In this document: positions 1 through 27,264 of the stretch, in pieces
Layout of the letters: each line of letters opens with the position of its first letter
How positions within the stretch are numbered: position 1 is the stretch's first letter
Source: Cyanophora paradoxa CCMP329
Taxonomy: Eukaryota > Plantae > Glaucophyta
Assembly: GCA_004431415.1 (NCBI GenBank)
Contig: QPMI01000018.1
Location: forward strand, 1 to 33,666
Direction: 5' to 3'
DNA: 33,666 bases
Program-made: the position numbers and the translations under genes
Notes under the pieces: model-generated
What the model was told of the DNA's origin: nothing
Database searches by the model: none
Seen by the model: only the letters and a program-made list of their open reading frames with translations

Positions 1-500
1 GAGCACGGCCACCACGCGTCGGCGTGCACGAAGCCGGTGCGCTGCTACAACTGCGGAGGGGAGGGTCACACGCAGAACCGCTGCCCCAGTGGCAAGCGCC
101 AGCACGACGGCGGTCCCCCACACGGTCCGTCCCCGAAGCGTGGCCCCGATGGTGGTGCTGGCGGCGCAGGAGGCGGCGGGCACCGTGGTGGCCATCGCGG
201 CGGTGGCAGGGGCGGCTACCAGAGCGGCGGTGGAGGCGGCGGCCAAGGCGGGACGGGATCTAACGCCACCCTCCTCGGCAATCCCGCCCCGATGCAGCGC
301 CCGACTGGCCCCGTTGTTGACGCGCCGTCTTCGCGCCCGACTGGCCCCGTTGTTGACGCGCCGTCTTCGCGCCCGGCTGGCCCCGTCACTGACGCGCTGC
401 CTTCGCGCCCGACTGGCTCCGTTGCTGACGCGCCGTCTCCGCGCCCGACCGGCCCCATCGCTAAGCGCCGCCCCCGAACCCTCGCCCGACTGACCACGGA
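1..500 (+). CDS. gag: Gag C-terminus: two CCHC zinc knuckles (first truncated by window edge), Gly/RGG-rich tract, Pro-rich repeats
   Basis: Frame 1 from base 1 reads EHGHHASAC-TKPVR-CYNCGGEGHTQNRC (CX2CX4HX4C), then GGHRGGHRGGGRGG. Confidence 0.85.
298..491 (+). repeat. 36-bp coding tandem repeat, ~5 copies (RPTGPVVDAPSS)
   Basis: Units cgcccgactggccccgttgttgacgcgccgtcttcg start at 298, 334, 370, 406 and 442 with increasing divergence. Confidence 0.95.
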
Positions 501-3500
501 GACGCCGTGCAGTCCGGTGGTCCTGACTCGGGCCGGGAGACCGAGGCTACGACGGACAGCCTGGCCATGGTACCGATCGCTCCGGTGCAAACTGTCCCGA
601 TCACGCCGACGCAGCCCTCGGCATCGGACATCGCGCACTTCGTTCGGGACGTCAACGCCACGACGGCGACGCAGCCGGTAACGTCGGCGGCGGAGAGGAC
701 GGCCCCCGTCCCCGTCGCCATCCCCGTCGCTGAACCCGCGTCGCCGTCCCCCTCGTCGACTCACGCGACCGGCCCGTCGTCGCCGGCCCCGTCTGACTTG
801 TCGACAGAGATGGAAACGGGAAGCCGTACTGCGGCCGAGTCCCGTGTTCCAATTCGGTGTGCGCAGCCCCGGCGGGGCGTCACTGCCGGCAGTATCCGCG
901 ACCTCATCAACGCTGGCCTCCGCCGGCACGACCACACTCGCATGTCCGCCGCCTTGGCTCCCGTCACGTCCAAGAAAACCCCGCTCTTCACTCGAAACTT
1001 TGGCCGTATGCACCGCCCGCGCCCGAACGCCATCAATCCCGTCGCCCGCGTCGCAGTCACGAGGTCGCTCACCTTCGCGGCCGCCCCCTCGGCGAAGAGC
1101 ACGAACTCCGACGCTGACTCTGTGCGGGAGCCGAAGACCCGGACGTACTGCGCCCTGGGGGACCCCGTCACAGAGTCGCCGATGGACACTGCACTCGGCC
1201 CGCTAACCTCCAAATCGAGCACCGACTCCCCCGCAGCCACCTCGCAGCAGGAGGGGAACGTCTCGAAGGGAAGTGGGCGGCCGACCCCGAACTACAAGGC
1301 CCCGCCCGCCAAGATGCCCGAAATCGACTCGCTACCGGCGGTCGAGGGCTGCGAGTCCTTGGTACCCCTTTGCACTGACTGGCTCGACAACGTTGCTTAC
1401 AACATGCACACTCGCCGTGTTAACAACCGCATGCACGTCGACGGCATCCAGTGCACTGACTGGCTTCGTGATGGCATCCCTTCGAGCGACCAGCGCCAGA
1501 TCCACGCGCGTACCATCCTTTACTGCCCCGCCCTCCAGATGCTCACGACGTACCTCGAGCCGAAGGGCCCCGGTGTCTGCTGGGCTCGCGTCCGCAACGC
1601 TATCGATGCGGAAGGCGACTCGGAGGAGGCGCGCGCGCACCGCTTCCCCAAGCCCCACGACAACATGTACCCCGTCTTCACGCAGGCCTCCAATTACCGT
1701 ACCGCGGTATTCACGGAGGATGCGCACATGCCTCGCCGTCGGGACCTGTCTTTCGCCAACGAGACGTGTGCTGACTGCCACCCCCATGTCGTCGGCCGCC
1801 AGGAGAATGGTACCCTTGTTGCCCGCCCCATTCCCTCGGCACACCGTCGTGACGCGCCCAATGACGGACTTCGTACTGCTCACTCCGCGCTCATCGCTGC
1901 GCTTGAAAGCCTCCCTACGTCGCACCCCGTTCGTGACCCGACCAGGGAGATGGAGTTCTTTGTGATCGCCCGCGACATCTCCGGACACGCGAAGAACGGG
2001 CGGTTCCCGATCCCGCCGGCGCTCGACGTGAACCCCGGCATCCCGTGCGCTGACGGCACTCACGCTCACCACAGCCACCCGCATTGGCACTTGCTGGCGA
2101 CCCGCCCGCTCATCAACCCGAAAGGCCACAGTGAGCACAAGCGTCTGAATGCGGCCGTCACACGCATCATTGCAGACACGGCCACTGAGGATGACGTGAC
2201 AACGTTGCGCACGTGGATCGCAATCGCCCGTGAGACGACGACTATCGCGGCAATTAACACTAACATCTCGAACACCAACGAGCAGCTTCGCCGGCCCTAC
2301 CGGGGCGCTGAGGGCGAGCAGCTGTTACACTTGGTTGAAATGGCAGCGATGGCCATCACGAACACGGGCGCCCCGCCGCCTCGCACGCGGCAGGCTGCGG
2401 CCAACCACGTCACGAGTGTACTGCGTAAGGAGCTCGAGGCATTCGATGTTGACACTACGGTTCAGGCAATCGTCAACGCTCTGTGCGCCCGTCGTGTCTT
2501 CACTTTCACCGACGGCGCCATGGACACAACCGACGCGCCGCCTGCACCTACGACAACGCTGACGCTCCCAGGAGCTGCTGTCGTCGAGTCCCTCCTGAAC
2601 CGTGTCAAGACGTCCTTCACCGACGCGCAGAACCGCAGCCCAACATTCATGCGCCCCAACCGACGAACGGCCGCTGTCAATTACGTTGAGAGCACACTCC
2701 GCACGTACCTCCGTGGCTACGACGTCGAGTCTACGATCCTACTTCTCGTCTACATTCTCGAGCGCGAGGGTGAGCTACGGTTCGCCTCAGGCCCTGACGC
2801 GACTTCGGCAAAGGCTGCTGACGCCTACGCTCGTTTCGTCGCGGCAAACGCTCCGACCGACCCCGTCGCCGGACCCAGCTCTGTCGCGACGGCAGAGGGC
2901 CTCGCCCCTGAGGACAAGACGCCAATCGTCCCGCCGACCACGCCCACTCCACCCGCGCCCGCCGTACTGCGGCCCAAGGCGTCGGAGGACAGGGCTGACA
3001 ATGACCCCATCAACCGCAACCGGAAGTTGCGCGAGATGCTGATGGACATTGCGGAAGACTCGATCACGCTCATCGCTCGTCGCCACCAGGCAGCGGGGAG
3101 GTATGAGCGCGAGGGTGGAGACCGCGTCTTCGCCTCTCGCACGGTCGAGAAGATCATGGTCAGTGTTGGGGGACAGCAATTCTTCTCTTCCTGTCGCCAG
3201 TCGACATGCCTGCACCGTGCCACACGTGCAAGCATCGGCCCCGATGGCTCACCCGTCATCGTGAACCACGCTCCGTGCATCAGTGATCAGCATTGCGCAC
3301 CGCTACTACGAGTACATCGACTCGCCACGGGCACACGGTGACAATGACTAACGTCGACTTCAGGAGCACTGCCGCCTCTGCAACGCCGCCGTACATGGAG
3401 TTCGTCCGCAACTGCCCGTGCCGTCGCCAACTTCACGCCAGCGCACGCCGTACCCGAGTACTCTGCGACCTGACGATGCACCGGCGGACATCACGCTCGA

Positions 3501-6500
3501 CGCTCTGTACGGAGTGACGATGGAAATGAAGACGCTCTTCCTGCGGATTATGGTCTGTTAATGGATATCACCCCACAGGAACGACGTCTTGACGGGGAAC
3601 GACGACTGGCCTCGGGTCGCTGACATCTTCCTTAACGTCGACGTCAGCCCCTTCACCGTCCGCGCCAGCACCCTTCGGCCTGGCGTTTTGCGACGCGAGT
3701 ACTGGACCGATAGGCACTCGGCCAATCATTCTCGCTCCGGGAGTCGTCAACACCTCTGGGCAGGACACGTCCCGACTCGCGCGACGACTGTGAACGCGTC
3801 GCTTCCCGTCTGCTTGTCGCACCGGCGTTCTACCATGCTCACGCGTTAATGCACCCGTCGATGAGCCGAACACGCGCCTCGGCCGACACAACTGATCTCC
3901 GCCTACCCGGTGCCTGAGACCACGGTCGCTGCAGCTGGGGGAGTGAGCCGCAAGTTGGCGTCGATTTACGTCGCTGCGTTCTACACGACTGCCGGCCGAC
4001 AGCGGACAAGACTAAGCCGCATCTCACTCTCCGAACCAACGACGTCGACATGGAATACTTGCGACTCGCGCCGAGAACGCGCGACTTCGGGACCCGACGC
4101 AGTTTTCGGCGAGGTACCTCGAAGTCCACAACGTGTTGACAGACATCCTTCGTCGCCGCACGCCTGGAACGCCGTCCCGACCACATCCGCCCGACAAGCA
4201 CGCGCAGCTGCTGGCCGACGAACAGCTTGCACGTGAACTGCAGGCTCGCCTCGACGCCGAAGCTGCCAAGGGAGAGGACCCGGTGCAGGCCCGCGGCGCA
4301 AGCCCCTACTTGCAGGCTGCAATCGGTGGTATTGCTCGTGGCCGCACCATGACGCCCGTCGCCGTACTGCGGCAGCACAGGCTCCACCGCGCCAATCGGC
4401 GAGGCACGGGGGAACGTTCAGGGGCCGCGGCCCGCGCGCTCCCGATTCATACCAGCCGGCCCCAGACCCCGGGCAACCCTCACTACCACGATGACGACAT
4501 GACGTGCCCAACGGCACCCGGTGACACCGCCGACCGACGTCCGGAGCCCCCGGCCCCGCGGAACGACCTACCCCCTGCGCCCGAGTGACGCCTCGTCGAC
4601 GGACACTCCGGACGCCCAGCCCGTTGCACCCGCGACGACGACTCCGGACGCCCAGCCCGTTGCACCCGTGACGACGACTCGGTGGCCCCGACGCCCGCTC
4701 TCGAGACGCCGGTCTCGTCGACGGCCGCTCGAGATGCTTCGCCCATCGCACCGGCGATGGCGACCTCGCTGACGACCCCGCACAGCGTCCCGTCCCCCAC
4801 GGCCGTGGCTGCGTCTCGACGCCCCGTCGCCTCCGCGCCTGAGCTACTGGCCCCGTCCGACGCCCCGCAGCCCCGGCCACGACTGTACGGCGGCCCCGCC
4901 GCAGAGCCGGCCCAACCCCCGATGCTGCCGATCCCGTCACTTCACCCCGACTACACTGCACCGACCGACGCGTCGATGCCTGACTCGACGACTGCCGACT
5001 CGTCGGGCACTGAGAGGACCGAGGGCGTGCCATGGGCGACCCGCGCGTTTCGAGGGGATCATCGTCGACACGCCGACCTTGCCGAGCCCTCACGACGACC
5101 GTGACAGTCCTCCTGACACCGACGAAGACACGTCAGCGACTCGGAGCCGAGATCAAGGACGTGGCCGCCGACCTTGGACACCGCCACGCCTGGACGATCC
5201 TTCGCCTCAAGCCCGTGGTGCACAACCAGCTGCGTGCGTACCTGGACACGCCGCGACGCTTCATGGTCACAACGACGACGACGGATTGGCGCAAGACCCC
5301 TGAGACGCCGACCCTCTTCGCCGCCAGCGAGCTCACGAGCTGCATGCACCTCGCAGCTGCCCGCAGCAACACGCCTACTGGGCAACCGTTGCTGGGTACT
5401 CGCCGAGTGACAGGCTCACTACCTCCTTCAACATCTGACCGAATTCCGCTCGTCATCCACGTCATCATGCGCCTCGCGCGGGCTCAGCCTTCGCGCCTGG
5501 GAGACGGCGACCACGTGGCCTCACCCGAACGACCCGCTCGCCGATGTCCTCGGACGCCAGAGATGCTGGAGCTGTTTGGTTTGACACCGACAGAGTTCAC
5601 TCTTGTACACCAGTCCAAGACTCCAGTCGTACCGTGCATCCTTCAGGTGGCTGTCAACCTTGCCCGCAATCTCCGGACGCTGCACTACGACGTGGAGATG
5701 ACGGAGAGCGATGAACGGTTCTTGAACTTCGACAAGATCACGAACACGGCGACGCGCCTTGCAACAATCAGGCAACTGGTCCAAATGTCAAGTTCACGGC
5801 CCCGCTCACAGGACCTGACGACATCTATCTGTCTACGCTTCGACACGGTTCACCGCCGCCCGACATCGCCTTGTCGATGCGTTCGACGCCCTGGCGCGGG
5901 CGTGGGACATCGCTGCATACTTCGACCATTACAAGTGGGACGAGACGCGCGACCGCTACGGGGATAGCCGATTTGCTCACCTCTACGACGTTCGTGACCC
6001 AGCACCGAGCTCCGACCGTCCATGGCCGACGAGTCACGCGCCGTTGCTGTCAATGCTCACCGAGCAAGTCGAGAACGTACTCCGCCTCGTCAACATCACA
6101 GCCGACGTCGAGGGCCCCGGCAACTTCCTGCGCCGTTACTACACGTCCCGTTTCAACCCGAAATCCGACGCGAACCCGGCTACGAACCAGCGGGCGACCG
6201 CCGAGCTCGCGGAGGAGATCCGGCTGAACAGCCAGTTAGCAGTGGTCGCGGCACGCGATGTCCATCGTCTGCGCACGCCCCCCGTCAGCGAGTCCGACCT
6301 ACACCACTGTCTTCGGCACGGACTGTCCCGTCACCGCTCCGGCGTCCCCCCCTCAAATTTCACGAACGTCGTCGCCGCGTCTGTCACGGAGACGACTGCG
6401 CTGGCAAGGCTCGCCGAGCTACATGACACCACCGTTGTCGCGATGTCAATCACTACGTTCATGCACAAGCGTCAACTCGCCAAGAAGGGCAAACCGATCC

Positions 6501-9500
6501 GTCTCGAATCGCGACTGCACGCCCCCGTCTTCACCCCGAAGCAGCCCGAGCCAGCTGTCGAGCTCTATTACAACTCTGACCGTTACATAATGGTGCACCC
6601 TGAAGAGGCGGCGCTCCTGGCGTGCAAAACTGCGTGGCGCTCCCATATCCTCCAGCTGACTCTCGAGGCCATGCGTCGCGCGTACAAGCTCGAGACGGAG
6701 TCAAGCACTCGTACTGCGAGCAAGCTTGCTTTCGGCCTCGTCGCTCGACTCGACACTGCACTTAGCAAGGCTACGACCACCCAGCGCTTGGCGGTAACAC
6801 GGGCCTTCCTCCTGGACGCCGAGCATCGATTGAATCTGTTCTACTGCATGCTTTACCCGCGCTACCGCGATCACCTACTCCCTGTCCTCCCCAGTCCGAT
6901 GGTACCCGTCACCGACCCTCTCGCCGTCCCGGTCCCACGGCCCCCTGAGCGCGACGTTGACGAGTACGGATACCTGACACAGTGGACGTCGGACGGCATC
7001 GACATCTTGCCTCGCGTTCCTGACTGGGATTCCCTCGTTGGACTTGTCGACGACATGAGCAAGGACACTTTCTGGAACTCCAACACGTATTTCGGGCTTC
7101 GCGCCCGCGCTATGGTCTACGGAACAGAGCGCAAGCGCCCCCGCGAGAAGCGACCGAATGACGAGAAGTTGCAGAAGAAGGAGCGCAAGGCCGCCCGGCT
7201 CACTCCCGAGGAGGTCGACTCCATCATCTCCAGAATTTTGAGCGAACTCCACACTGTTCCTTTCAAGGAGGTGCTACTCTCGGAGAACGCTGACATCCCT
7301 GACGTCTATTTCTGGGCCTTCCTCAACGAGAATGGGCGAAGGGCTTCACGGTCGTCGACGGCGCTGGCTACCAGCACGGAGTGTGGCCGGATCTGAGCGG
7401 CGTGATGGTCCGACGGGAACCGCGACCTGATTCGACGGAGAACGAGCGCGACACGTTCTATGCGGGTTTGGACGGCGCAACAATCACATCAACGGGAATT
7501 ATTCGCCCAAACGATCAACGACTGGTACCCAATCCGTCTCCACAATCCTCGCCCCCACTCCCGTACGGCATGCGCACATACAGCCCCGAGGAGACGCGAG
7601 CTGGAGGTGACTTCCTACCTCTGGATACTGATCCGGGACGGGATACCTCCTATCACATCTTCATGACACCGCTTCTCTTCACGAACACGGACTTCCTGGC
7701 CACAGCGTACTGCAAAACGATCCAGGAACATGGCGACACGCGCCCCACATCTTCGCCGTCGCGGCTCACATCCTCGGAGGCCCAGCCCCGTTCGGACAGA
7801 CGGCTGATCTGACGAGGAGCTCACTGTGGAGGACGGGCACAGACCGGAGGAGCTCCGGAGCCGCCGCCGGTCGAAGAGCTGGAGGGAATCCCGACTCGGA
7901 CCCACCCCCAGTTCATCCCGCCACCACGACAAAGAAGTACATGCACGTCCTAGGTGAGGTCCACATGCCATACGTGCTACTCGGCGACTCTGGTCTCGAG
8001 GCATTTCTCCGGCGCGTCCGTACATGCGCCCATTCCTCATGAAGATGCACGTACGCTGGTCGAACTTCTCGAGAGCACTCAGTCGTGTCCTACGCTACGG
8101 TGTCGGCCCCGGCACCTACCCGTACCGCGCCGGCGCCCCCGGCCATGGCGAACTCAGCCAGCACAACCGCGCGGGCCTGCCCTTCCGATCGTTCTGATCA
8201 CGGCCGCCGACGAGTTCCACCCGGCCAACAAGTATGCGACTACTTCGACTGCATCTACGACGAGGACAACCACGCGCACCTCCGTGACTCCGCTTCACGT
8301 CAAGATGTCGAACGATGCTTCTACGAGATTGCCATGCCCGACGACCTCAGCGCGCCGCCCATGACTCTTACGCCGGCCAACGCTGACCTGTGCGGCCTCG
8401 AATCGTCCGATTCACGCACGTTGCACCGGCCGGACCCAGCCGCGGTGCCCCCAACGCGATCCAGAACCGCTCGCACATCACTATCTTCGACGCGAACAAC
8501 CGGAACACCTGGCAGCAGATCATCGCGGGCACGAGGAAACCCCAAACGAGGCGGCGGGGCCGCACCCGTGCGGCCCCGACCCCAGTACTTCCCGGTGTCC
8601 GTCAATGACTACACTGGCCCTGGGGCGTCGTCGTGTCTCTGCGTCGTCGCGGGCCCACGGGCACCGCGCCTGCAACGCCCCCGTCGTCCACCAGGTCCTG
8701 GGGTTCCCGCTTTCGGTACACACTTGGGTGTACGGAATCGCAGCGTACCTGGCGGCGGCAGTCAAGCTGCACGGTGCCTTGTCGTTCTTCCTCGAGCCCC
8801 TACCGGGGAACTCGGGAACATCATCATCGACTACGTTCGTAGCCACGAGGATGAGCTGCACTTCCGCTTCACGGCTTCAGGCGAAGTGGCGCGCAGTGCC
8901 AAACTCGACAAATGGTACGAGGTCGAGTACCCTGACTGCGAACGCGTCGACCCGGCACATTTAATCACAGCCTTCGAATCCCTACTGCACAAGGCAACCA
9001 ACGACTGGTTGGCGGTCCAGATCAAGCACGAGACACCCCGGCGGCTCGCGAAGATGTCGACATGGATCGAAACCACTGCTGGCCCGTAGCATTCCGACTC
9101 CCGGATGGAGTCATCAACGCACTCAACGCCCAAGTCCGGGCGCTGACTTCGATCCCACGAACGATCCGTCACACCCGCATCGTCCCAGTGTCTATGACGT
9201 CAACGCGAGCGCAGTGCGCAACGCTATTATGGATTTCGAACAGCGATACGCCGACATACACGAGCAATTCCGTCACGCCGAATATGGCAACTTCACATTC
9301 GATCCATTCTACAATGAATTCGGCGCCGCCATCTTCAGTCGCGAACCGCAGGCGCGGGCGCTACTCCACGGTTGGTTGGAACAATTCGTTTACAATCACG
9401 CCACCGTCGACGCGGCGACGAGGCGGCCCATCACGTTCACTAGCCGCGAAGCCTACCGGGCGGTACAGATCGTCGACGTCCTCCCCTGCGTCACTCCCTG

Positions 9501-11100
9501 GGCGATCCGGACAACGACAGCCTCCTTCGTCAGATCCCCCACATTTACATTGGTCACGGCCCCCACGGCGCGCCTGTCGACCCGTACGAAGGCCGCACGC
9601 GCTTCACTAACATCATGAACTACATCACTACGACGAAGGCAGAGGAGTCGCGCGCGTACATTTGGGACCCGCGCCTCGACGGCAAGATCAAGCTCGTGGG
9701 CACGGACGAGTACATTCGTCGGAACCCTGGGATTGCGCGCAAGCCCTTTGTCCGACCCTTCGTCGTCTGGTCGACCGACTTCAAGGATCTGCGCACCAAC
9801 GAGCCGACGGGACTGGCACGCTTCGGTCACATCCAGGGTGTTGTCTTCAAGCCATCTGGCAGTAACAGGCCTCCGCGTCGTAGTCCTACGGGGACCGAGA
9901 CGACGGGAACCTCTGACGGCGACGACTCCAGCTCGGACAGTGGTGGCTCCACCGCCGAGTCCGTAGCTCCATCGGAGACCCCGTCGGCCGGGACGCCGAG
10001 CCTAGCCTCGCGCGTGCAGTCGTCCGCGTTCGCCCCCCACGGCCTCCTTGGACCGCTCACACGGCAGCACACGCACACGATCGCATACAACGACCTCACT
10101 AATCCCAGGACGTCGACGGATCTCACGATGGGCTGCTGGCTCCTCTACTCTGGACGGGGACCGGACTACGAGCGGATCACGTCCGCGCGACACCGTGCCT
10201 TCGAGGACCCTGAATTCGCCGCCAGTTATCACTTGTACGACTGGTCGCCGCTTCAGCGGTCTCACCAACTCAACGCCCACGCAATCCTGGAGACGCTCCA
10301 CGAGATCGAGAACTTTCGGTGGGATTTCACAACCTCTCAGGGCCTGTCAGCCGACCTCGCTTTCACTCGCGCCTTGTTCACTCGGGCGGCCTTCATCCTC
10401 AATTCAATCGGCCTCGCGGCGTGGGACGTGGTCCTCCACAATGACTTCCGTAGTCATGACGCTCAACGGACACGTTTCTACGAGCGGCACGTACTCCAAC
10501 GCGACACGCGCCTCCGCCACGCTTGGCCCCAACTCGTCAAATATCTCCGGGCGTCTCTCTCGCGCCACCGCGAAGCCATCCCGTTCCGATCCCCCGGAGA
10601 GCCTGGCTACCGGCCGGCTGAACGACGGGATGGCGCAGCGGGGACCGAAGTTGACGCGATCAACGAGATTCACTATGGCTGGCCCAGCAACCGCCACCTC
10701 AACAAGCTCGCAAACGCCGACTGCAAGCCCATCCTTGGCGTCGGATACTTTTCAGCCACAATGCGCAATAACCGGCCCCCGCTGCGTCTGTCGGCAGCTC
10801 CCTGCAGGGCACGCCCATTCGCCGCGACGGACGTCCTCATGAACGTGCACAGGCGGACAACCACGCGGAAGCGACCTCGCCTCAAGCGGACGGCACCGCT
10901 CCCGCCAGCCAGCGTCATCTCCGGTTCGACACCGTGCACACCGTATGAGCAGAGCTACCTCGCCTCGCTTCGCGTCTGCGCGGCACGCATGTTGGGATTT
11001 GACGATGTCGAGGACCCCCTTGACGTTCCCCTCTTCGGCGACGGCGGCCCGTCAGTACCACACCCCATTGCGCGAATGACGGACACGAACCGCACGCTCA
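483..11100 (+). CDS. Very long unassigned coding region between Gag NC and protease (frameshifted)
   Basis: Overlapping + ORFs 507-3341 (944 aa), 4133-4588, 4682-5104, 5032-5967, 6044-7396 (450 aa), 7381-7812, 8085-9089, 9062-9618 and 9615-11840. Junctions traced (e.g. ~465, ~3615, ~7340) join into protein-like sequence on adding one base. No family recognised. Confidence 0.7.
4605..4683 (+). repeat. 36-bp tandem duplication (TPDAQPVAPxTT x2)
   Basis: actccggacgcccagcccgttgcaccc at 4605 and 4641. Confidence 0.9.
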
Positions 11101-11119
11101 GAGAGCGCATCAACGACGG

Positions 11120-11537
11120 CCGAATCTGCGTCAACTTGCACATCGCCGCTATCGATCACCGACGACAAGTCCTTCAATACCTCCTCACCAAGGCATTGGT
11201 GGATACAGGAGCCGCTGCGGACGTACTCGACGGCAGTATCGCCGACAAACTGCCAGGCCTTCGCTACAGCAACGCTCCGCGCGTGCACCTCACCGGCTTT
11301 GGAACGGACATGACTGCCTATGCGCGCATCGCATTCATTGCAATTAAGGTTGGTCCGGTCACAATTCCGCGGAAAGTCCTCGTCGTCGCGCCTGGTCTCA
11401 TGGGCAACACTCCAATGCTACTCGGCCTCACAACGCTGGTGGCGCTCAACGCTCACATCGTGCTCGACCCAGCAAATTGGGGAATGACGATCACGTCGCC
11501 TGACTCCTCGGATGGCGAACGATTCCACGTCCCTTTT
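11120..11537 (+). CDS. Retropepsin-type aspartic protease domain
   Basis: ALVDTGAAADVL (DTG at 11202-11210), flap-like VHLTGFG, C-terminal MLLGLTTL, within ORF 9615-11840. Confidence 0.9.
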
Positions 11538-14500
11538 CGGCTGCGGGCCAGCACGACGGCGGCGTTCTGGTCCGATTGGCGAAGGACATCACTGTACGGC
11601 CGGGTGAATCGCTCGTTCGATGTTACATGCCACAAACGACTTCGAACACGACTCTCGGCGCACCGGAAGTCCTCCTCACTCCGCCACCACTCCTCCTCGA
11701 CGACGACGGCTTCGACGGAGCCGACGAAGTCGAATTCTTGGTGCCATACCAAATTCACCGCAACCCAGCACACGGCACGTTTTTCGTGCAGATCTGCAAC
11801 CCTCACAGGCGGCCTGTCCGCCTGCAAGCCGGAACTGTGATTGCGGAGACTGAATTCGGGACTTGGCCGGAGTCCGAATTCCGTCCACACGAGAATGTCG
11901 AGACCTACCCCAAGGGGTGCTACAGCTCCTGGACACCTCAACAACAACTGACATTCCCGATCTCTTCCGTAGCCGCGCAAATCTACGAGAACTTCAAGCC
12001 TGTTGTCGTACCCCGACGCTCGCAACCACGGCGCTACATCTCCCGAGCCCGACGCCTCTATCCGGAGGTCTACCACCGACGACCGCCCGAACCCAACTAC
12101 ACGGAGGGCGAGGCGGCGCATGTTGGCTCCGTCAATGCTGCTGCCGACATCCCGCTATCCCACGAGGCCAGCGAGCGTCTCATGTCGTACGTCGCACGTG
12201 TCGTCACCCCTTACACTGCTCGAACCGGTGATCACTTCAACGACAAGGAGCTCATGGAGCTGGCCAGCTTCTTCGAGCCTCACTTCGCCCGCTTCGACTC
12301 CGAGCCGATGCTGGTTGGCCCCGCAGTCGGCCCCACGGTGCCCATCGCGTCCGTCAATGCCGACGCTCGAATGGAGCCCCCGTCGAGTGACACTGCGCCT
12401 CCTACAAAGCCATCGCCCGAGACCATCAAGGCGATGGTGGACGCCCTGTTGAAACCATCGGAGTCGAACCCCGACGCCCTTCCCGAGGATCGCACTCAAC
12501 TCCAGAACCTTCTCACGCAACGCCAGCACTGCTTCGCCCAGAACATCAATCCACGCGAGCTCCTGAAGTACAAGCACAGCATCCGACTTCTGCCCGGCGT
12601 CCCCGCCAAGCACCTCCCGCTGTACACCGTTCCTCGCCGGCTCTCTCCGCCTGCGGAGAAGGCTGCGAAGGCGGAAATCGAGAAGCTGCTACGCGACGGT
12701 CTCATCGAGCCTTCGCAAGCTGGTTTCGGCAGCCCCGTGGTGCTGGCACCGAAGAAGGATGGCACGATGCGATTCTGCGTCGACTACAGGAAGCTCAATT
12801 CCCTCACGGAACGTGATGTCTTCCCGTTGCCACGCATTGAGGACCAATTGGAGCGCCTACAGGGCGCGTCCACGTTCTCGACTGGCGACGCAACGTCGGG
12901 CTTCTGGCAGTTGGAACTCGACGAGGAGTCACGTGACCTGACGACATTCATCGTCCCCTGGGGAATGTACAGGTGGAAAGTGACCCCTTTCGGTATCACG
13001 AACGGCCCAGCGGCGTTCTGCCGAGCCGTGACGTCAATTTTGGGCAACCTTTTGTCCACCTGCGTCGTGGCGTACGTCGATGACCTCACGGTCCACTCGC
13101 CGAACGTCAAACAACACCTTCTCGACTTGGAGGCCTTCTTCGCTGCGATCGACCGCGGTAACCTCAAACTCAAGCCCAGCAAATGTCGTTTCATGGTGCG
13201 GGAAGTCGAGCTGCTCGGATTCCGCGTTAGCAGCGACGGCATTCGCATGGACCCCAAGAAGGTCGAGATCATCTCCAAGATCACGGCGAACGAACTCCAG
13301 ACTGTCGAGCAACTCCGCAGTTTCCTCGGCCTCACAGGCTTCTACCGGCGCTTCGTACAGAGTTACGCGCGACGGGAACTTCCCCTGCGAGACCTCCTCA
13401 CGGACGCACTACGAGCCGACCGGCTCAACTTGGTGTGGAATGACGAGGCTCTCGCTGCGTTGGACGACCTCAAGAAGGCGATGTGCGAGGACATTGTGCT
13501 GATGCTGCCCGACTTCACGAAGCCGTTCATCATTTACACGGACTGGAGCAAACGGGCCATGGGAGCGGTGCTCATGCAGGAGGACAAGGACGGCCGCGAG
13601 CGCCCAATCGCATTCATCAGTCGTACTCTGACAAACATGGAGCGCAAGTACCAATCACCAACGGAGGGCGAATGCATTGCAGTACTCTGGGCGGTTAAGG
13701 TCTGGCACCACTACTTCGTCTGCGGCCACCCGTTCACGATCCGCACGGATCATTCGGCGTTGCAATGGTTGAAGACACAGGAGCTGGCGAACAACAAGAC
13801 GCTTGGGCGCGCGGCCATCGCCCTCAACCACTACAACTACACTATCGAGTACCGCAACGGGCGGTCGAACGTCGTTGCGGACTGCTGCTCTCGCCTTGCG
13901 GAGACGCACGCAGTGTACAAGCCTGGCGGCGCTGACGGCACTGACATCACGACTTCGATACCCGACGGCGCTCACGGGTTCGGTGTGCCCGATGCGGGAG
14001 ACTACGACGATCCACGCGAACTCTACCGCGTCGCCATCCACCGCACCTCCTCGGCCCTGCAACATACTCTGGACGGGCCGGCGTGGATCCCTACTGGGGA
14101 TAGACGCCGCGCCACCACGCGACCCGAGCACCTTGCCCCGGCGCCACCGCGCCGAGACCGCGACGACCCTCAGACTTCACGGCGACGTCCAAGGTCGTTG
14201 ACGCCCGACACTCAGCGAGTGCGTGACATCGTCGAGAACGGCGGCCTGGAAGATGTGGAGTCCCAGATCACGCTGGAACGGCTCCACGAGAACGGCGCCC
14301 TCTCTGCCCCCGACGTCGTACCCATGGAAGTTGACACGCCTGCACCGGCCGCAGCGGCAGACGAGGCGGGCGCGACGGCCCCTCCTGCACGGCGACGCCG
14401 CGGGGTGACGAACCTCGAGCATACACTCGACGGCGCGGCTTGGCTACCGGCCGAGGGTCGCCGCCGCCGACTTCAAGCTCGAGGACAGGAGAGCTCCGCT

Positions 14501-15055
14501 GACGGGCTTCAAGCTCGAGGACAGGAGAGCTCGGCCCGGAGGCCTCGGTCTCAGTCACCGGAAGGAGGGGGAGGGGGTACAGACGAGGAGAGCGAGCCGT
14601 CGCTACCCCGTCCATCTTTGCGAGGCTTCGATCGTCAAGCAGCTGACCGCACGCTACGCGACTCTGTGGAACGGGCACGACGCCGGGCCCTCACGGATGA
14701 CGGCCAATCTTCGCAGTCCTCGGCGTCCGACGGAACGTCGAACTCAAGACGGAGCACGGCTTGGAGTGTCCCGCGCCAATACCAGCGACGGCTTGAAAAG
14801 GACTACGCTGACCGCCTCGCCAGTGATCGCGACAGACGTTCGCGTGCGGCCCGAGATCTGCACGAAGCCTCGCGGGAAAGGACGGCGACGACGCTCGAAC
14901 GGCGACGCCAACTGGCAGAGATGGGCCGTACCCCGTCTGAGATCGACGCGCTCGTACCCCTGCCCTCTGTTCGGAACCGAACCCCGGAGGAGCGGCGCAG
15001 ACGGCGACAATCCCGCAAGGCGCTGAACGCCAAGGCATGCCCGTACCGCGGGTGA
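11531..15055 (+). CDS. pol: Pol: dUTPase-like region, reverse transcriptase, RNase H, long low-complexity linker
   Basis: RT motifs SPVVLAPKKDGTMRFCVDYRKLN, FPLPRIED, GFWQ, PFGITNGPA, YVDD (13073-13084), LLGF, LRSFLGLTGFYRRF. RNase H motifs YTDWS (~13535), TEGECIA, IRTDHSAL, NVVADCCSR. Confidence 0.97.
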   Translation, partial: PFSAAGQHDGGVLVRLAKDITVRPGESLVRCYMPQTTSNTTLGAPEVLLTPPPLLLDDDGFDGADEVEFLVPYQIHRNPAHGTFFVQICNPHRRPVRLQAGTVIAETEFGTWPESEFRPHENVETYPKGCYSSWTPQQQLTFPISSVAAQIYENFKPVVVPRRSQPRRYISRARRLYPEVYHRRPPEPNYTEGEAAHVGSVNAAADIPLSHEASERLMSYVARVVTPYTARTGDHFNDKELMELASFFEPHFARFDSEPMLVGPAVGPTVPIASVNADARMEPPSSDTAPPTKPSPETIKAMVDALLKPSESNPDALPEDRTQLQNLLTQRQHCFAQNINPRELLKYKHSIRLLPGVPAKHLPLYTVPRRLSPPAEKAAKAEIEKLLRDGLIEPSQAGFGSPVVLAPKKDGTMRFCVDYRKLNSLTERDVFPLPRIEDQLERLQGASTFSTGDATSGFWQLELDEESRDLTTFIVPWGMYRWKVTPFGITNGPAAFCRAVTSILGNLLSTCVVAYVDDLTVHSPNVKQHLLDLEAFFAAIDRGNLKLKPSKCRFMVREVELLGFRVSSDGIRMDPKKVEIISKITANELQTVEQLRSFLGLTGFYRRFVQSYARRELPLRDLLTDALRADRLNLVWNDEALAALDDLKKAMCEDIVLMLPDFTKPFIIYTDWSKRAMGAVLMQEDKDGRERPIAFISRTLTNMERKYQSPTEGECIAVLWAVKVWHHYFVCGHPFTIRTDHSALQWLKTQELANNKTLGRAAIALNHYNYTIEYRNGRSNVVADCCSRLAETHAVYKPGGADGTDITTSIPDGAHGFGVPDAGDYDDPRELYRVAIHRTSSALQHTLDGPAWIPTGDRRRATTRPEHLAPAPPRRDRDDPQTSRRRPRSLTPDTQRVRDIVENGGLEDVESQITLERLHENGALSAPDVVPMEVDTPAPAAAADEAGATAPPARRRRGVTNLEHTLDGAAWLPAEGRRRRLQARGQESSADGLQARGQESSARRPRSQSPEGGGGGTDEESEPSLPRPSLRGFDRQAADRTLRDSVERARRRALTDDGQSSQSSASDGTSNSRRSTAWSVPRQYQRRLEKDYADRLASDRDRRSRAARDLHEASRERTATTLERRRQLAEMGRTPSEIDALVPLPSVRNRTPEERRRRRQSRKALNAKACPYRG

Positions 15056-16881
15056 AGCCTCCCAAGGGCAAGAATTCACGGCAGTCTCGATATGCCATTG
15101 CGCCCCCGTCGCATCTCGACGTTGCTGACGAGGAAGAGTACATGCACTTCCTGCAGCAAGAACGTGACCTCGGTCGTCCGCGACCTGATCCCACTTCTAG
15201 CAGCGCTATCGCCCCGCTGGACGAAGGTGAAGGCGCCCAGAATGAGCCGACACACGTTCGCTTGCCGCGTGGCACCGTTGTCATGGACACCTGGAGCGAG
15301 GGCCCCCGCCCCCTCGTTGACGTTCCTCCGCCACCGACGATCCGTGAACTTGTTTCCGATGGGACCGCGGTCATCATGGCTCAGGCTCGTGACCCTCTTT
15401 GCCAGATGGTGTTCGCACTTCTTCGCGAGAAGGAGAACCTGGCGCGCTGTCACTCCCACTACACTGCTGGTGAACGTGACCCGGAGGTGCTTGGGAGCTG
15501 CATTCTCTGCAAGTCTGCACGCGATCGCTTCGCTCGTGAAGCTACTCAGTACACGATCGATGAGCAAGATACCGTACTGCGGTTGCCCTTGCTCCCCACT
15601 ATGCGGCCTCAGATCGTTGTACCCCCAGAGTGGCGGGAGAAGATTGTTCACGCTTACCATGATGACTGGGCTCACCGTGGTGCCCCCATTGTTGCTCGGC
15701 GCATCGCCTCACGGTTTTGGTGGCCGGGCATGACGACTGCTGTCCATCGCTACGTGAAGACGTGCCGACACTGTCAGTTTGCCAAGGCTCACAAGAAGCC
15801 GAAGTCACAATTCACTGTGATCGAGTCTGAGCATCCTGGCGACTTGCGTCAAGCCGATCACTTCCCTATGGCGCCCTCTGAGAACGGTCGACTTCACCGT
15901 TTCACACTTGTGCACATTGATGTCGACGCTTTTACCAAGTACCCTGAGATTTTGATGCTGACGGAGGCTGATGGTCGTGCCTGTGAGTGGGCTGCACAAA
16001 CTGTGTACGCGAATCACGGCCCTTGCAAGCGGTATCTCACGGATAACGCCAAGGTCTTCACGCCTACTAGTCTCTGGGGCAAATTCTGGACTCGCCAGGG
16101 TACTCGGTTGATTTACGCTCCCACGTCCCACCAGTCCACGAACGGCGGTGCTGAGCGGCTTGGTGGCATTTACAAGCGCTTGGTGTATGCTCTTTGCGAT
16201 GAGAACGGGGAGGACAATTCCCATTGGCCTTTCTATCATTATCGCGTGCTCTTCGCTCTCCGGACCACGATCCACGCTGCCACTGGTTTTTCACCCGCCG
16301 CTCTGCACTTTGGACGAGAATTGATGTTGCCTGGCGATCTTCGTCTCGACCTCACCCTGCGCGAACCTCACGAAGATCCCGTTTCTCTCTACGATTACGC
16401 TTTGTCGGTCGCTCGAGCCGCCCGCGACCAAATCTCTGCCGTCCGAGAACACCGCAAACTTTACAACAAGAAGTTGCTTCGCTATGGCACTGGCCGTGAG
16501 CCGCATCGTGTTTTCAAGCCTGGTGACAAAGTGTTGTGCTGGATTATCAGCGCGAAGACCAGTAACGTCAAGCGCACTGGGCCTCGCAATGGTTGGACTG
16601 GCCCTTACACTGTCACTGAGGTTCACTCTCACGGTCTTTTGTACACTGTCCGAGGCGATGACACTTCACTGGTGTATCGCTCGCGCGAGGTTCTCATGCA
16701 CGTTGATCTCATGATCGCTTTTCACGAGCGTCCTGCCAATGTTCTCGCTCCCCGCAAAGCCGGTCGCCCTCGCAAGGCCCCCGTGCCTGTGCCGCCCGAT
16801 CATGAGGTCCCCGTGCCTCCGCCACCTGCCGTTGATCCCGATTCACTTTCCGATGATGACACGACGGATAACGAGTCTTGA
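15037..16881 (+). CDS. Integrase (HHCC zinc domain, DD36E core, GPY motif, C-terminal AT-hook), -1 frame relative to RT-RH
   Basis: HDDWAH...CRHC; QADHF...LTDN...NGGAERL with 36 residues between the second D and E; TGFSPAALHFG; WTGPYTV; RKAGRPRK; stop TGA ending at 16881. Confidence 0.95.
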   Translation: MPVPRVKPPKGKNSRQSRYAIAPPSHLDVADEEEYMHFLQQERDLGRPRPDPTSSSAIAPLDEGEGAQNEPTHVRLPRGTVVMDTWSEGPRPLVDVPPPPTIRELVSDGTAVIMAQARDPLCQMVFALLREKENLARCHSHYTAGERDPEVLGSCILCKSARDRFAREATQYTIDEQDTVLRLPLLPTMRPQIVVPPEWREKIVHAYHDDWAHRGAPIVARRIASRFWWPGMTTAVHRYVKTCRHCQFAKAHKKPKSQFTVIESEHPGDLRQADHFPMAPSENGRLHRFTLVHIDVDAFTKYPEILMLTEADGRACEWAAQTVYANHGPCKRYLTDNAKVFTPTSLWGKFWTRQGTRLIYAPTSHQSTNGGAERLGGIYKRLVYALCDENGEDNSHWPFYHYRVLFALRTTIHAATGFSPAALHFGRELMLPGDLRLDLTLREPHEDPVSLYDYALSVARAARDQISAVREHRKLYNKKLLRYGTGREPHRVFKPGDKVLCWIISAKTSNVKRTGPRNGWTGPYTVTEVHSHGLLYTVRGDDTSLVYRSREVLMHVDLMIAFHERPANVLAPRKAGRPRKAPVPVPPDHEVPVPPPPAVDPDSLSDDDTTDNES

Positions 16882-16926
16882 ATCACGGCCCGTACACTGG
16901 GAGTCGGATTCCTATTACACCCTGGG

Positions 16927-17398
16927 TGTATGACTATTACACCGAGTCCGCGCACCTATTACACCGAGGGGTTCGCCCGGGCTGCCGCCCGACTGCACCA
17001 GGACGCGCTGATAAGGGTTAGGATCTCTCAGTTGCATGTTCACGCATCGGCCGACGGTCGGCCTTGCGTCCGGTGACTCGCTGGAGTGGTGAAAGACCAC
17101 AGCCAGCGGACGGTCTTGAGCCACGTGGCGGAGCACCGCAGGAATCGTTTCGCCTGACTAAGTAGCTTGCTTCTAGTACTGTCGACAAGCTACAGACCTC
17201 CGGCCGGATTGGCCGGGTCGGTCGGCTCGGGTGCACGGATTTGAAGTGCCGCGCTTCGGAATTGCTACGGCTGATGTGCAGAACGGTTCTAGCGAAGCTA
17301 TGGGCCTGGGCAAGCTCAAGCGGCCGTGCGCCGTGGGTCGCTCGTGGTCGGTGTGAGAAGGGTCGGAGTAATAGGAGAAGGAGTACAAAGATGTTGCA
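16927..17398 (+). repeat. Putative 3' LTR (TGTA... to TACA at 17387 or TGCA at 17398)
   Basis: Non-coding segment 45 bp after the integrase stop that begins TGTA and reaches a CA end near a composition change. No 5' LTR is in the window to confirm it. Alternative: the purine tract at 17371-17391 is the PPT and the LTR starts TGTTGCA at 17392. Confidence 0.35.
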
Positions 17399-18480: not shown

Positions 18481-18942
18481 GAGGGCGCGAGGCTCGTTCG
18501 GGAGGCCTTAGAGGGCGAACCTGGCCGGCCGGGTGCGTTCATCCGTATCTACTTATCAATATCAAGCTGAAAAGTCGATTAACTGCGCAGCCCCGTTCGT
18601 GCAGGACGGGAGCCTGGCGCTGTCGGCGCACTTCAGAAACGATCGTCGACGTCGGCGCAGTTATTCGAAGAGGTCATGGTCTGCAACTCGCCTTGACTTG
18701 CTGCCGTTTCCGGGAGCTCGCGTTCACTTCCTCGACGACACGATCATCGACGTGAAAATCGGCATGGTCGATTCCGGCATGCATGTGAGGACGAAGGACG
18801 GCGGAGGCCAACGGCTACTCGTGCCAAGCGGCCTCGAGGCTGGTGCAGGACTCCGAAAAGCTAAAGGAGGTCTTTATCGAGCTGCACGGCCCTCCACATG
18901 ACATTGTGCGACCTCGAGCTCTTCGCCGTTTTACTCGATGTC

Positions 18943-19000
18943 GCGATCTAGATGTCGCGATCGTTCCGGAGAGCGATCTAGATGTCGCAATCGTTCCGGA
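18943..19000 (+). repeat. 30-bp direct tandem duplication
   Basis: gcgatctagatgtcgc(g/a)atcgttccgga at 18943 and 18973. Confidence 0.85.
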
Positions 19001-19207
19001 TCCGGCGTCAGCATAATCAGGGCGACCAATTAGAGCGGCGGCGGCGACGGCGCGGCTGCAGGGCGACGGCGGCGGCGTAGTTTCCCTATGGTAGATAGAG
19101 GTAAATGTAGCTTGTGTTTCTGGTAGTTCGGGTGTAGAAATTGCAAAGTGCTGTTTTTCACCACCGGAGCCAATAGACCTCTGCCACGCTTGATATTTAT
19201 ATTTGTC

Positions 19208-20000
19208 GAAAGCACCCTAAAGCGGGGCAGAGGCTCGTCTGGCCTTCCATTCTCGAAGGCGAGGTCCGATGCCCCACTGGGCCAGGCCACCCAGTGACCG
19301 TCATTTCCGGGGAAGAGTGCCGGGCGAACATTTATCTTTCTTTTTCTGTTATTCAAGATGCTAATCATGTTCGAAAGCACCCTAGAGCGGAGCAGAGGCT
19401 CGTCTGGCCTCCCATTCTCGAGGACGAGGTCCGATGCCCCACCCAGTGACCGAGCCATCATTTCCGGGGAGGAGTGCCGGGCGAACATTTATCTTTCTTT
19501 TTCTGTTAGTCAAGATGCTAATCATGTTCGAAAGCACCCTAGAGCGGAGCAGAGGCTCGTCTGGCCTTCCATTCTCGAGGACGAGGTCCGATGCCCCACC
19601 CAGTGACCGAGCCATCATTTCCGGGGAGGAGTGCCGGGCGAACATTTATCTTTCTTTTTCTGTTAGTCCAGATGCTAATCATGTTCGAAAGCACCCTAGA
19701 GCGGAGCAGAGGCTCGTCTGGCCTTCCATTCTCGAGGACGAGGTCCGATGCCCCACCCAGTGACCGAGCCATCATTTCCGGGGAGGAGTGCCGGGCGAAC
19801 ATTTATCTTTCTTTTTCTGTTAGTCCAGATGCTAATCATGTTCGAAAGCACCCTAGAGCGGAGCAGAGGCTCGTCTGGCCTTCCATTCTCGAGGACGAGG
19901 TCCGATGCCCGACCCAGTGACCGAGCCATCATTTCCGGGGAGGAGTGCCGGGCGAACATTTATCTTTCTTTTTCTGTTAGTCAAGATGCAAGTCATGTTT
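19208..20000 (+). repeat. 157-bp tandem array, 5 units, each an imperfect ~122-nt palindrome plus AT-rich linker
   Basis: gaaagcaccct starts at 19208, 19373, 19530, 19687 and 19844; units 2-5 are near identical. Confidence 0.97.
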
Positions 20001-20176
20001 GATGTTTATTTTGTTCGTAATCAACCTTGAATGACTACGTGATACAGCCTCCCGATGTTGCGTGATTGTTCAGCACCCTTCGTCATCACTGCGTTTTGTG
20101 AATCAAAAGAATGAAAATGAAATGATGAATGGTCTCGCCCTGAGATGTTGAAAATGTCCGCAAACGAGAGACCTTT

Positions 20177-21262
20177 TCAAATAAAAAGAAATGCATGAAA
20201 ACCCACATTGATGCCAAAACGTAAGCAAGACGGACCGGACGGCGCGGTACCAGGATCGTTTTCAACGAACACCTTTTTATACTCCTCCGCCATCGTGTCC
20301 ATGAACTTGCGCTCATCATCATCACCTTCCAAATCTTCGCAATGTTTCCAGTCGGAGACAGCACGCTCCGGCCTGAAGTCGACCTCTCGTGCGACAGACT
20401 CCATGAAAAACAAGACCCAAGGACCACAGTGGCTAGCGGCATCGGATCCGTGCTTGTCTTGAAGGACATTGTTTCGAATCTCGATCTTGTCTGTTTCGTC
20501 GACGATTGTAAAATCACGGAAAGCATCCACAAGCAACGTCTCCAATGCGTTTTCAATCGGGTCTTGCAGCGAGTCAAACCAGCGAATCCGCCTTGAACGG
20601 AAGTCGAAGACGAGAAGACACCAGTGTTGCCAGGCTGTGGATGCGTACAAGCCTTTCCAGACTACAATCGGCAAGAAACATAGCTTCCACTTTCCACCGA
20701 TGTTGTCAATGACACTGCGGCTGATTGCAGGGTCTCGATTTGCGAGCGCTTCCATTATCGAAAGCGCATCATCGATAGAGAGCGCCCATAGAAGAGCGAC
20801 GTCCCCGTGCGCAATCAAATCCTTCAAAAGATGGGCTGCAGCGAAGTCCAAATGGCAGTCCTAACCAAGACGAAAGTTCAATGCAGCCAAAAAGAAGCAT
20901 TGCCGCAAATATTTTGCTGCCCGCACCGTATAACAAGAATTGGAACCTTCCGGGAGTCCGTCGTGCGGAAACTCATCCACAAAGCGTTTGGAGTATATGG
21001 TGCCAAATGGAGCCCGATCTCGCTGGCGGTTTGGAGTATATTGAACCAACTGGAGCCCGAAAGGACAACGATTGGCAGGTCCCCGCGCTCCAGTCTGCTC
21101 ATCTAGGCAACGAATACACAACCTGCGCGCGGATCGCAGTCACAAAGAGCTGCGTACGCGGTCAACCTGGCGGGCGAACCCTTCGTCACATCTCTCGCAT
21201 TTCAGCACCGCAGCGTTCGAATTCGTGACGCCGCAGACGGAGCAAGACACCTCTGGAGTTCG
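20177..21262 (-). CDS. Ulp1/SENP-family (peptidase C48) protease with N-terminal PHD/ADD-like Cys-rich zinc finger; start exon unresolved
   Basis: Catalytic motifs QHWCLLVFD (His 20624-26), WFDSL (Asp 20573-75), LQD and SHCGPWVL (Cys 20426-28). Exons 21262-21180, 21122-20927 and 20860-20177 join in frame via GT-AG introns of 57 and 66 nt, each containing an in-frame stop. The product reads CSVC-x11-CERC-x4-CIRC...CPF, then CYTDCHLDF. Confidence 0.85.
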
Positions 21263-23417: not shown

Positions 23418-24103
23418 GCGCCGTTTGAAGGGCCTTAAAAAACGCCACGCCAGCCGCGTTCGTCAACTGTGACATACCCAATCAACGTACCTGTGACATA
23501 ATCACCACATGATCAACGTTAACGTACCTTGTCATTCTCGCCAACATTTACACCACGGATACAGAGCCCCGGAATTCCGAGAATCGGCAGGATGTACGCC
23601 TCAAACGAAGCGTCGTCCAAGCCCCAGCCGTGGCAGCGAAGAGCGCGCAATTGGCAGAGCTTACTGGCTTGCTTCGTGATGACCGCGAGCAGGCGCTGGA
23701 GCTAGAAGTATGTAGAGGTCAGCAAGGAGAAGCGCCGCGCAAGCTTGCATATGCATGCGCTGGCGTGCCTGATGCTCGGGAATGTCGGTTTTGTGACCAA
23801 GCAGCTGGATGGAGTCAAGTCCTTCTAGATCGTGCTCGGAAGCGATGCGATCGATCAGCTTGTCGAGCTCTTTGTTCGCACGCCAATCATTCCACTTCCC
23901 ACTCGAGCTGTGCAGATCGGCGAGGCTCAGGTCGTTGCTTTTCAGCAGCGCCAGCAGCGACGCCGTGCGCTCTGCAAGGCGATTCAAATTCAAAGCGCGG
24001 CAACTGCAGGCGCACAGTGCCACGCACCACGTCCCCACGATGATGTCCGCGTGACAAGATTCGGTTGCCACTGCGGCCGGTAGGCGGGCTCGTCGACGTC
24101 CAT
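23197..24103 (-). CDS. Leucine-rich-repeat (RNI-like) protein, 4 exons, 240 aa
   Basis: Exons 24103-24028, 23971-23769, 23701-23528 and 23466-23197 total 723 nt and splice in phase (GT-AG, GC-AG, GT-AG). Product contains LRALRCHGWGLDDAS, IRGVNVGENDKLTNAAG and VGFYIGEGKLT. Confidence 0.7.
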
Positions 24104-24176
24104 GCGGACGGTCTGTAAAGTACGGTACCCCAACAGCACAGACGGAGTCTGACGGACTTGTACGGTGCAGCTCTCA

Positions 24177-26163: not shown

Positions 26164-26437
26164 TTTCAATATCTCTCATGAGAAAGACGCTCTTCCCGTG
26201 CACTTCCTTAGTTCCCGGAATGAAAGCTTGGTCGCGGGCACTGAAAGCTTGGCAGGGGTTGCTCATGCAGTTGGCGACTATCTAGGACGCTGTAAATTCA
26301 TATCTCTCACGCGAAAGAGGCTCGAGAATGGTCCGTCTTGCTTACGTTTTGGCATCAATGTGGATATTCATGCATTTCTTTGTATTTCAAAGGTTTCTCG
26401 TTTGCGGACATTTTTAACATCTCAAGGCGAGATCTCC

Positions 26438-27036: not shown

Positions 27037-27264
27037 GCAGAATTCGAAGTCTATTTCCACCCTCAAATAATGGTGGTGGTCGCAGATGCTGGCTCCGGTC
27101 GAGAAAAACAGCACTTTGCAATTTCTACACCACATTCTAGAAAGCCCTGCCCCGCCGTTCGCCCCGCACTCTTCTCGGAAATGATGGCTCAATTCAATTG
27201 AATTCAAAAGTGTACGTCAGATGTCCCATTTGCTTCACATCTTTACTGGCCTGCTCCTCTTTCA

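Follow-up and report, generated by a model that had tools for sequence, protein, structure and literature searches.

The glaucophyte alga Cyanophora paradoxa probably carries a multi-copy Ty3/Gypsy retrotransposon in which approximately 3,700 conserved codons are held in frame with Gag and protease (PR), and in which pol is reached by a -1 frameshift. Part of one copy is found at positions 1-16881 of a 33,666-nucleotide stretch of contig QPMI01000018.1 (strain CCMP329, assembly GCA_004431415.1), which is referred to here as the window. An initial annotation, made from the letters of the window, had placed zinc knuckles at 1-84 and a protease DTG motif at 11202, and Pfam and motif matches bear out both. 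It had not recognized that the frame changes by -1 past the protease, nor that there are sister families; both are described below.

A Ty3/Gypsy element with a very long insert

The plus strand of 1-16881 encodes Pfam domains in Ty3/Gypsy order: a CCHC knuckle, protease, reverse transcriptase (RT), RNase H (RH) and an H2C2 integrase (IN). The zf-CCHC match covers residues 14-30 of frame 1. Upstream sequence, which the initial annotation had proposed to seek, is present in other copies and contains 557 more Gag codons; residues 558-678 of P0124, a protein model from one of these copies, are identical to the translation of window positions 1-363. A profile of the window's family (family A) and its sister family B has the Ty3 RT (4OL8) as its best PDB match, with an expectation value (E) of 5e-56. 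The rve integrase core scores in sister families but not in the open reading frame (ORF) of the window. The features of the window copy are as follows.

1-84 (+): two CCHC zinc knuckles of the nucleocapsid (NC; PF00098), the first cut by the window start and complete in P0124
85-1310 (+): Gly-rich tail, 36-nt tandem repeats (297-470) and Pro/Ser/Thr linker (Pro/Ser/Thr fraction 0.38, hydrophobic fraction 0.17)
1314-2150 (+): cargo block 1, Cys/His-rich (CTDW twice, CADCH, HHSHPHWH), without homologue
2100-2330 (+): short helical segment that marginally matches Pfam EAD10 (25.5 bits against a cut-off of 24.1 when scanned alone, below cut-off in context)
2298-2804 (+): two tandem units of about 78 residues, 32% identical, predicted to be winged-helix-like (a lead from a model with pLDDT, the predicted local distance difference test score, of 65)
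3000-4350 (+): cargo block 3, which has two CxxC pairs; rich in indels in the window copy and spanned uninterrupted by P0159 and P0160
4350-5150 (+): Pro/Thr linker with 36-nt repeats
5150-7400 (+): cargo block 4, without homologue
7400-9850 (+): cargo block 5, collinear with sister family B from about 7940 (P0157 compared with P0131)
10020-10640 (+): cargo block 6, common to family B (32% identity), with no outside match among 1.84 billion proteins
11115-11530 (+): aspartic protease (PF13975, PF13650) with DTG at 11202, the domain that closes ORF1
11531-11574 (+): predicted signal for -1 frameshifting, composed of C_CCU_UUU (11531-11537) and a hairpin (11544-11574)
11543-11860 (+): opening domain of the pol frame, likened to a dUTPase on position alone, common to families B, C and E
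12749-13834 (+): RT (YVDD at 13073) and RH (PF00078, PF17917, PF17919)
13900-15600 (+): low-complexity linker of about 550 residues from RH to IN, read across by P0005
15619-16881 (+): IN, with H2C2 (PF17921) and, as motifs, D-D-E at 15856/16042/16153, GPY at 16600 and an AT-hook-like motif at 16753
16895 (no strand): point where the window copy departs from the family sequence; other copies continue for 224 different letters, and the window copy enters lower-depth DNA
1333-8368 (+): segment absent from an internally deleted sister copy (P0123, with an identical joint in run X15)

The interval from knuckle to DTG contains approximately 3,726 codons, spread over 11.1 kb of window DNA. The initial annotation had given it about 3,500 codons; the interval is real, and the length needs this correction. 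In the window, 13,033 nt separate the knuckle from the YVDD of RT. Of 56 metagenome Ty3 loci, 18 have a knuckle, and in these the same distance is 1,485-2,838 nt; in 23 of 92 outside proteins it has a median of 556 residues (range 347-904).

A three-periodic model trained on pol alone was used to find stop-free coding paths. Between knuckle and protease the pol-like codon signal hops among the three forward frames, and the plus-strand path through 90-11100 requires 25 frame switches at -1.34 per base. Comparison paths require 72 switches on the minus strand (-1.42), 78 in the flank (-1.47) and two in pol (-1.25).

Several expected or conceivable parts of such an element were also sought. Pfam gives no chromodomain match at E 10 in 16351-16878, where the ORF ends in the AT-hook-like motif and an acidic tail, and none for a second RNase H between RH and IN. 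That spacer has a hydrophobic fraction of 0.14, and the switch of frame near 15016 within it comes from a missing letter. The domain at 11543-11860 has no Pfam or PDB match and none to dUTPases, and its comparison with P0049 was negative. Rfam and tRNA scans found nothing.

The insert belongs to the element

The best RT-RH matches (100, 100, 90, 79 and 75% identity) are EukProt proteins, those examined being labelled Cyanophora paradoxa, and no outside protein exceeds 44%. The element is matched by gene models from 16 contig names, one of them identical to the window. Models from the 15 other contigs cover 221 of the 222 50-nt bins of 100-11200, and a single model, P0121, joins 1314 to 14458. 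Thus other copies share the interval, as the initial annotation had foreseen for a genuine giant element. At least half of the sequence words of 5000-14000 are present in 18 of the 24 runs listed. Runs that are presumably RNA cover the element, coverage that is no proof of its transcription, and their greater depth on either side of 1333-8368 is given no weight here.

Contig depth is level across the element. It is 202-248 in the interval, 230 in pol and 51-53 in the flank for run X5, and 1057-1460, 1384 and 322, respectively, for run X2. The element therefore stands at approximately four times the depth of its flank, a ratio that is not itself a copy number; the family has about four to fifteen or more copies. 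Because gene models on 15 other contigs and level short-read depth tie the interval to pol, it is assigned to the element.

These observations bear on the idea that the interval is a nested mobile element, such as a Helitron, or a host gene lying within an ordinary Ty3/Gypsy copy, either of which the initial annotation had named as fatal to its proposal. The idea draws on the Atlas features of P0157, for which the closest clusters are Helitron_like_N (0.90, 138 of 256 shared). However, nine in ten Atlas matches within a family share at least 170 features, neither P0157 nor P0131 contains PHxH, and there is no match to PF14214 at E 1. Pfam likewise finds no Helitron HUH Rep or PIF1; block 1 has one HPHWHL, with no YxxK nearby by eye. 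In addition, strand and frame are unchanged between Gag and protease, depth is level, and terminal repeats are lacking. A nested element or host gene is largely refuted and highly improbable, though fragments of other elements may have been captured in frame long ago.

A likely single reading frame from Gag to protease

The window copy differs from short-read contigs by 73 indels and 25 substitutions in 3000-9600, and by two indels and 36 substitutions in 9316-16611. All 20 distinct indels among those listed are single letters absent from the window, and all 12 that were tested lengthen a neighbouring letter. This pattern fits long-read error. Decay of the window copy is a residual alternative source of the indels, and the result for the family is unchanged either way.

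The net length differences of 20 listed contig pieces were compared with the frames given by gene models of other copies. One continuous frame fits 14 of the 16 pieces outside 11535 (P 1e-5 if one in three fits by chance), and the two pieces that do not fit stop at an indel. Gene models tile 3-11741 except for two gaps, at 6892-6899 (7 nt) and 7522-7585 (63 nt), both of which are bridged by contigs. Across seven pieces from run X5, 61 letters are missing in total (with a 13-nt unlisted hole at 3473-3485), which places base 1 and base 11537 in the same frame. Gag, approximately 3,700 cargo codons and the protease are therefore likely to share one frame, in an ORF1 of approximately 4,523 codons that includes the 557 upstream codons of P0124. 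The overlapping same-strand ORFs of the initial annotation are indeed on one strand, but they are pieces of one frame broken by letters missing from the window copy.

A frame change after the protease

An extra frame step is kept in all four contig pieces that cross 11535. It is exactly -1 in three of them; the fourth differs because its start, two letters past an indel, mis-sets the start frame. The -1 frame change just after the protease is genuine.

The heptamer C_CCU_UUU at 11531 is the sole X_XXY_YYZ sequence in 11300-11850. It lies in the ORF1 frame, where it encodes Pro-Phe. The pol frame is open from 11504, and the heptamer sits where this frame begins to align with the sister families. 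The hairpin begins 6-7 nt past the heptamer, with z scores of -1.43, +0.24 and -0.45 depending on the window used. Slippage at this site is predicted to yield 4,423 + 1,781 = 6,204 residues.

Pol could instead be reached by splicing or by separate initiation. In Ogre elements an intron separates gag-pro from pol, and a hairpin that fails to reach significance leaves room for a comparable arrangement here. Such routes are very unlikely, since a canonical slippery heptamer stands in the right frame exactly where the pol frame starts to align with sister families. In addition, contigs from four runs contain no joint at this place, although contigs show presence rather than absence.

Selection within the family and replacement between families

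In the complete substitution list of run X5 for 3000-9600, 20 of 25 changes are synonymous, whereas transitions would be expected to be so in 33% of cases (P 2e-6). Six frame calls are less certain, and a count of the certain ones across the whole interval gives 17 synonymous changes of 23 (P 8e-5). The ratio of nonsynonymous to synonymous rates (dN/dS) in 3000-9600 is approximately 0.13, where the initial annotation had looked for a value below 1 between copies. Among the substitutions listed for PR-pol, six of 10 are synonymous (P 0.08).

Family B, with 75% identity in RT, has related cargo. P0157 and P0131 are collinear at 24% identity over 588 columns (E 5e-22), and family B matches window 10053-11585, which includes the protease, at 35-36% over about 530 residues. 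Three other families have inserts of their own, whose lengths are rough because they come from ab initio models. In family C (P0137) the knuckle is at 560 and DTG at 3008, giving an insert of approximately 2,430 residues. In family E (P0180) these positions are 719 and 1522, with an insert of approximately 790 residues, and in family D at least 1,000 residues precede DTG. The inserts of C, D and E have no similarity to those of A and B at E 0.01.

Two of these inserts have conspicuous composition. In family D, P0178 has an extended Arg/Ser-rich, SR-protein-like region (residues 280-480) before the protease. P0180 of family E has tandem LRLRGGG units at residues 1005-1125 of its insert, a possible cleavage signal; we take these units to resemble the ubiquitin C-terminus.

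A quick maximum-likelihood tree was built from 68 RT-RH rows, none of which was dropped, including 46 outside rows and no reference lineage such as Burro. All 22 Cyanophora rows fall on one side of a branch with an SH-aLRT value of 100 and a stem of 0.87, and A is sister to B. The RT phylogeny that the initial annotation had suggested thus returns an isolated clade of all Cyanophora families.

One copy has lost 7 kb of the interval. The joint of this deletion has 3 nt of microhomology and is out of frame, so that the deleted copy would make Gag only. Splicing was rejected as the source of the joint, as there is no GT-AG, GC-AG or AT-AC pair in any register. The initial annotation had regarded copies that lack the interval as contrary evidence; one such copy exists, by an out-of-frame deletion, and the others keep the interval. 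Separately, contigs from run X17 that leave the family sequence at 856 suggest a further truncated copy, and contigs from run X5 that leave it at 3699-3784 suggest a diverged variant (seven differences in 86 nt).

It might be supposed that most of the interval drifts fast as spacer and stays open just because protease and pol lie downstream. Such a spacer would explain why outside homologues are lacking, why content differs among A/B, C and E, why approximately a quarter of the interval is low-complexity linker, and how a copy without 7 kb can exist. However, an open frame requires only that there be no stops, yet 20 of the 25 substitutions are synonymous. Two long stretches are collinear with family B, the blocks have protein-like composition, and the deletion copy is out of frame. 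Spacer is an unlikely description of the interval.

The cargo

The cargo blocks have a hydrophobic fraction of 0.28-0.31, compared with 0.36 for RT, and so are protein-like. Blocks 1 and 3 contain Cys/His clusters. The initial annotation had described the blocks as globular-looking and the insert as carrying cargo domains, a description that is largely unproven, as no block could be assigned a function.

Searches returned little beyond the element itself. Against a set of 5.8 billion sequences the cargo matches only proteins with the same contig-style names. Block 6 has four matches among 1.84 billion proteins, all in families A and B, and the AlphaFold2 model of 10020-10640 has pLDDT 37. In 56 metagenome Ty3 loci there is no match to the interval, whereas the best RT segments match at 27-50%. 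Block 1 has no usable match in the Atlas. Matches of the cargo to haemoglobin (E 0.05) and to an endolysin (E 0.29) were rejected as chance.

The repeat at 2298-2804 gives the one structural lead. Structure alignment (VIA-align) yields Z scores of 6.1-6.6 in the top 12 rows, which are tied and are mostly winged-helix domains. The best row is the CUL1 WHB domain (Z 6.6, root-mean-square deviation 2.4, 66 aligned residues), obtained with the pLDDT 65 model, which has no strand. Foldseek on the repeat unit gives nothing at E 0.001.

The cargo might include an envelope or cell-exit module and thereby make the element an infectious, virus-like one, as in the planarian element Burro. Env homology occurs in the equivalent position of Burro (PMC6431247). 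Weak hydrophobic stretches also occur at a homologous site in families A (1.62) and B (1.97), and there is one in C (1.76). Family A models have no hydrophobic 19-mer above 1.62 and no clear transmembrane helix, and no fusion-protein match was found in Pfam or the PDB. An envelope function is quite improbable.

A possible cargo bay expressed with Gag

Ty3/Gypsy copy-and-paste proceeds through a Gag particle. In the organization favoured here, ribosomes would mostly terminate where ORF1 ends, and a few would slip by -1 into pol. Cargo and protease would then be made one-to-one with Gag, and pol would be rare; the position of the shift after the protease would make cargo and protease as abundant as Gag. 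The protease of the element may free the cargo blocks by cutting at their Pro/Thr/Ser linkers.

What the cargo does is a more tentative matter. Strong selection within the family and replacement from one family to the next together suggest a conflict with the host. The likeliest role for the cargo, at somewhat less than even probability, is that of intracellular accessory factors that act on nucleic acid or on host silencing machinery and are rapidly gained and replaced in this conflict, rather than of an envelope. Cyanophora repeats are CpG-methylated (PMC12344493). More broadly, we consider it about evenly balanced whether these families form an undescribed glaucophyte lineage whose NC-PR slot serves as an exchangeable cargo bay, with 800-3,700 residues of new folds expressed at the level of Gag, an LTR-retrotransposon polyprotein of approximately 6,200 residues that is the longest of its kind we found on record, and cargo that counters silencing or modifies the particle. 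No description of these elements was found in the literature searched; subscription journals, Repbase and supplements lay outside its scope and could hold a consensus entry.

A number of points weigh against this interpretation. Contig arithmetic and ab initio models, rather than an error-free copy, are the basis for the continuity of ORF1. The 557 residues of Gag before the knuckles match no Pfam capsid family, although they align with the Gag of family E better than 200 of 200 shuffles. Taken alone the hairpin is not significant: 14 of 200 shuffles are as good, and longer windows are worse. Families B and C have Pro-Phe at the equivalent position beyond the protease, but this only suggests a shared slippery site because those families were seen as protein models, not as DNA. 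Nothing usable was found for the cargo in Pfam, PHROGs, NCBIfam, the PDB or the Atlas, the winged-helix lead has a Z score below 8, a common level, and the accessory role is a deduction. A copy without 7 kb of the interval exists. Finally, no long terminal repeats (LTRs) are found in the window, the 5' end being outside it and the copy departing at 16895, and the primer binding site, polypurine tract and target site duplication were not seen.

Ends of the element and its flank

Family contigs extend approximately 2.1 kb upstream of base 1. If contig ends mark LTR edges, the internal region would be approximately 19.3 kb, larger still than the element of more than 17 kb that the initial annotation had envisaged. 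Directly past the break point, 16895-17040 contains TATTACACC in three copies and a stretch of GATAAGGGTTAGG.

The remainder of the window contains other repeats. Inverted arrays of a 156-157 nt unit, 95-97% alike, lie at 19131-20236 (+) and 26330-27190 (-) and, with further matching arms, bracket approximately 6 kb. They resemble the long repeats found sub-terminally in a DNA transposon. In run X2, 18851-19500 has high depth, and related 390-nt repeats are found at 21720-23441. The first array is adjoined by a Ulp1/C48 peptidase catalytic fragment at 20177-20860 (-) (PF02902, E 8e-6), possibly cargo of the transposon. Between the arrays are an F-box-like ORF at 24153-24782 (+) (E 2e-4, below cut-off) and then a leucine-rich ORF at 25118-25774 (+). 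Diverged repeats at 29576-30622 comprise two spaced by 493 nt and three spaced by 137 nt.

Comparison with known systems

The domain order GAG-PR-RT-RH-IN defines Ty3/Gypsy elements, and extra ORFs are usually separate in this group (PMC6317226). The same source reports that no non-chromoviruses were detected among the algae surveyed, and Cyanophora goes unmentioned in its available text. The Cyanophora genome has been reported to contain 1.77% LTRs and 11.5% unknown repeats, and the word retrotransposon is absent from the available text of that report (PMC6704402).

The Ogre/Tat elements, non-chromoviruses of plants, resemble the Cyanophora element in being large Ty3/Gypsy elements without a chromodomain and with extra coding capacity (PMC6431247, PMC6317226). 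However, the size of Ogre is largely LTR, its internal region is 11-13 kb, its extra ORFs are separate, and an additional RNase H (aRH) lies between RH and IN (PMC6431247, PMC6317226). The Cyanophora element instead has an estimated internal region of approximately 19 kb, in-frame cargo and a low-complexity RH-IN spacer. Gypsy-7a_cRei of Chlamydomonas is likewise a large (15.4 kb), active algal Gypsy element with an accessory domain in its polyprotein (PMC9940879). It differs in having an 11.3 kb internal region and a known PHD finger, and no giant NC-PR insert is described for it in the available text (PMC9940879).

The predicted expression strategy is like that of Rous sarcoma virus, in which RT and IN are in the -1 frame (PMC5009743). 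The Cyanophora element is not a retrovirus: its RT/RH is Ty3-type, no env was found, and its ORF1 is several times longer. The protease of Rous sarcoma virus also lies inside gag.

Burro/GYPSM1 is the closest precedent overall. Both elements have a CCHC Gag, very long in-frame cargo, PR, a small domain between PR and RT, RT, RH and IN. In Burro the PR-RT domain is dUTPase-like, a likeness that the conserved Cyanophora domain has in its position only. Burro, whose ORF1 encodes 4,873-5,140 residues, was called a unique example in a 2019 review; its cargo is recognizable (MATH, BIR, ankyrin, BCL2, SUMO-like and env), and it has thousands of copies (PMC6431247). In contrast, the Cyanophora element has a predicted fusion of 6,204 residues, cargo without a known domain (MATH, BIR, ankyrin, BCL2 and env have no Pfam match in the interval models), pol in the -1 frame after PR, few copies and a glaucophyte host. 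An origin independent of Burro is likely, a judgement made with an RT tree that contained no Burro sequence. The Cyanophora families provide a second case of giant in-frame cargo, with different cargo in several sister families, and make it possible to test the size limits of LTR element genomes and polyproteins and the uses of accessory proteins to retrotransposons. They also contribute approximately 2,900 residues of selected, non-linker protein that have no relative among billions of sequences, and an unusual predicted frameshift from Gag-cargo-protease into pol in an alga that can be cultured.

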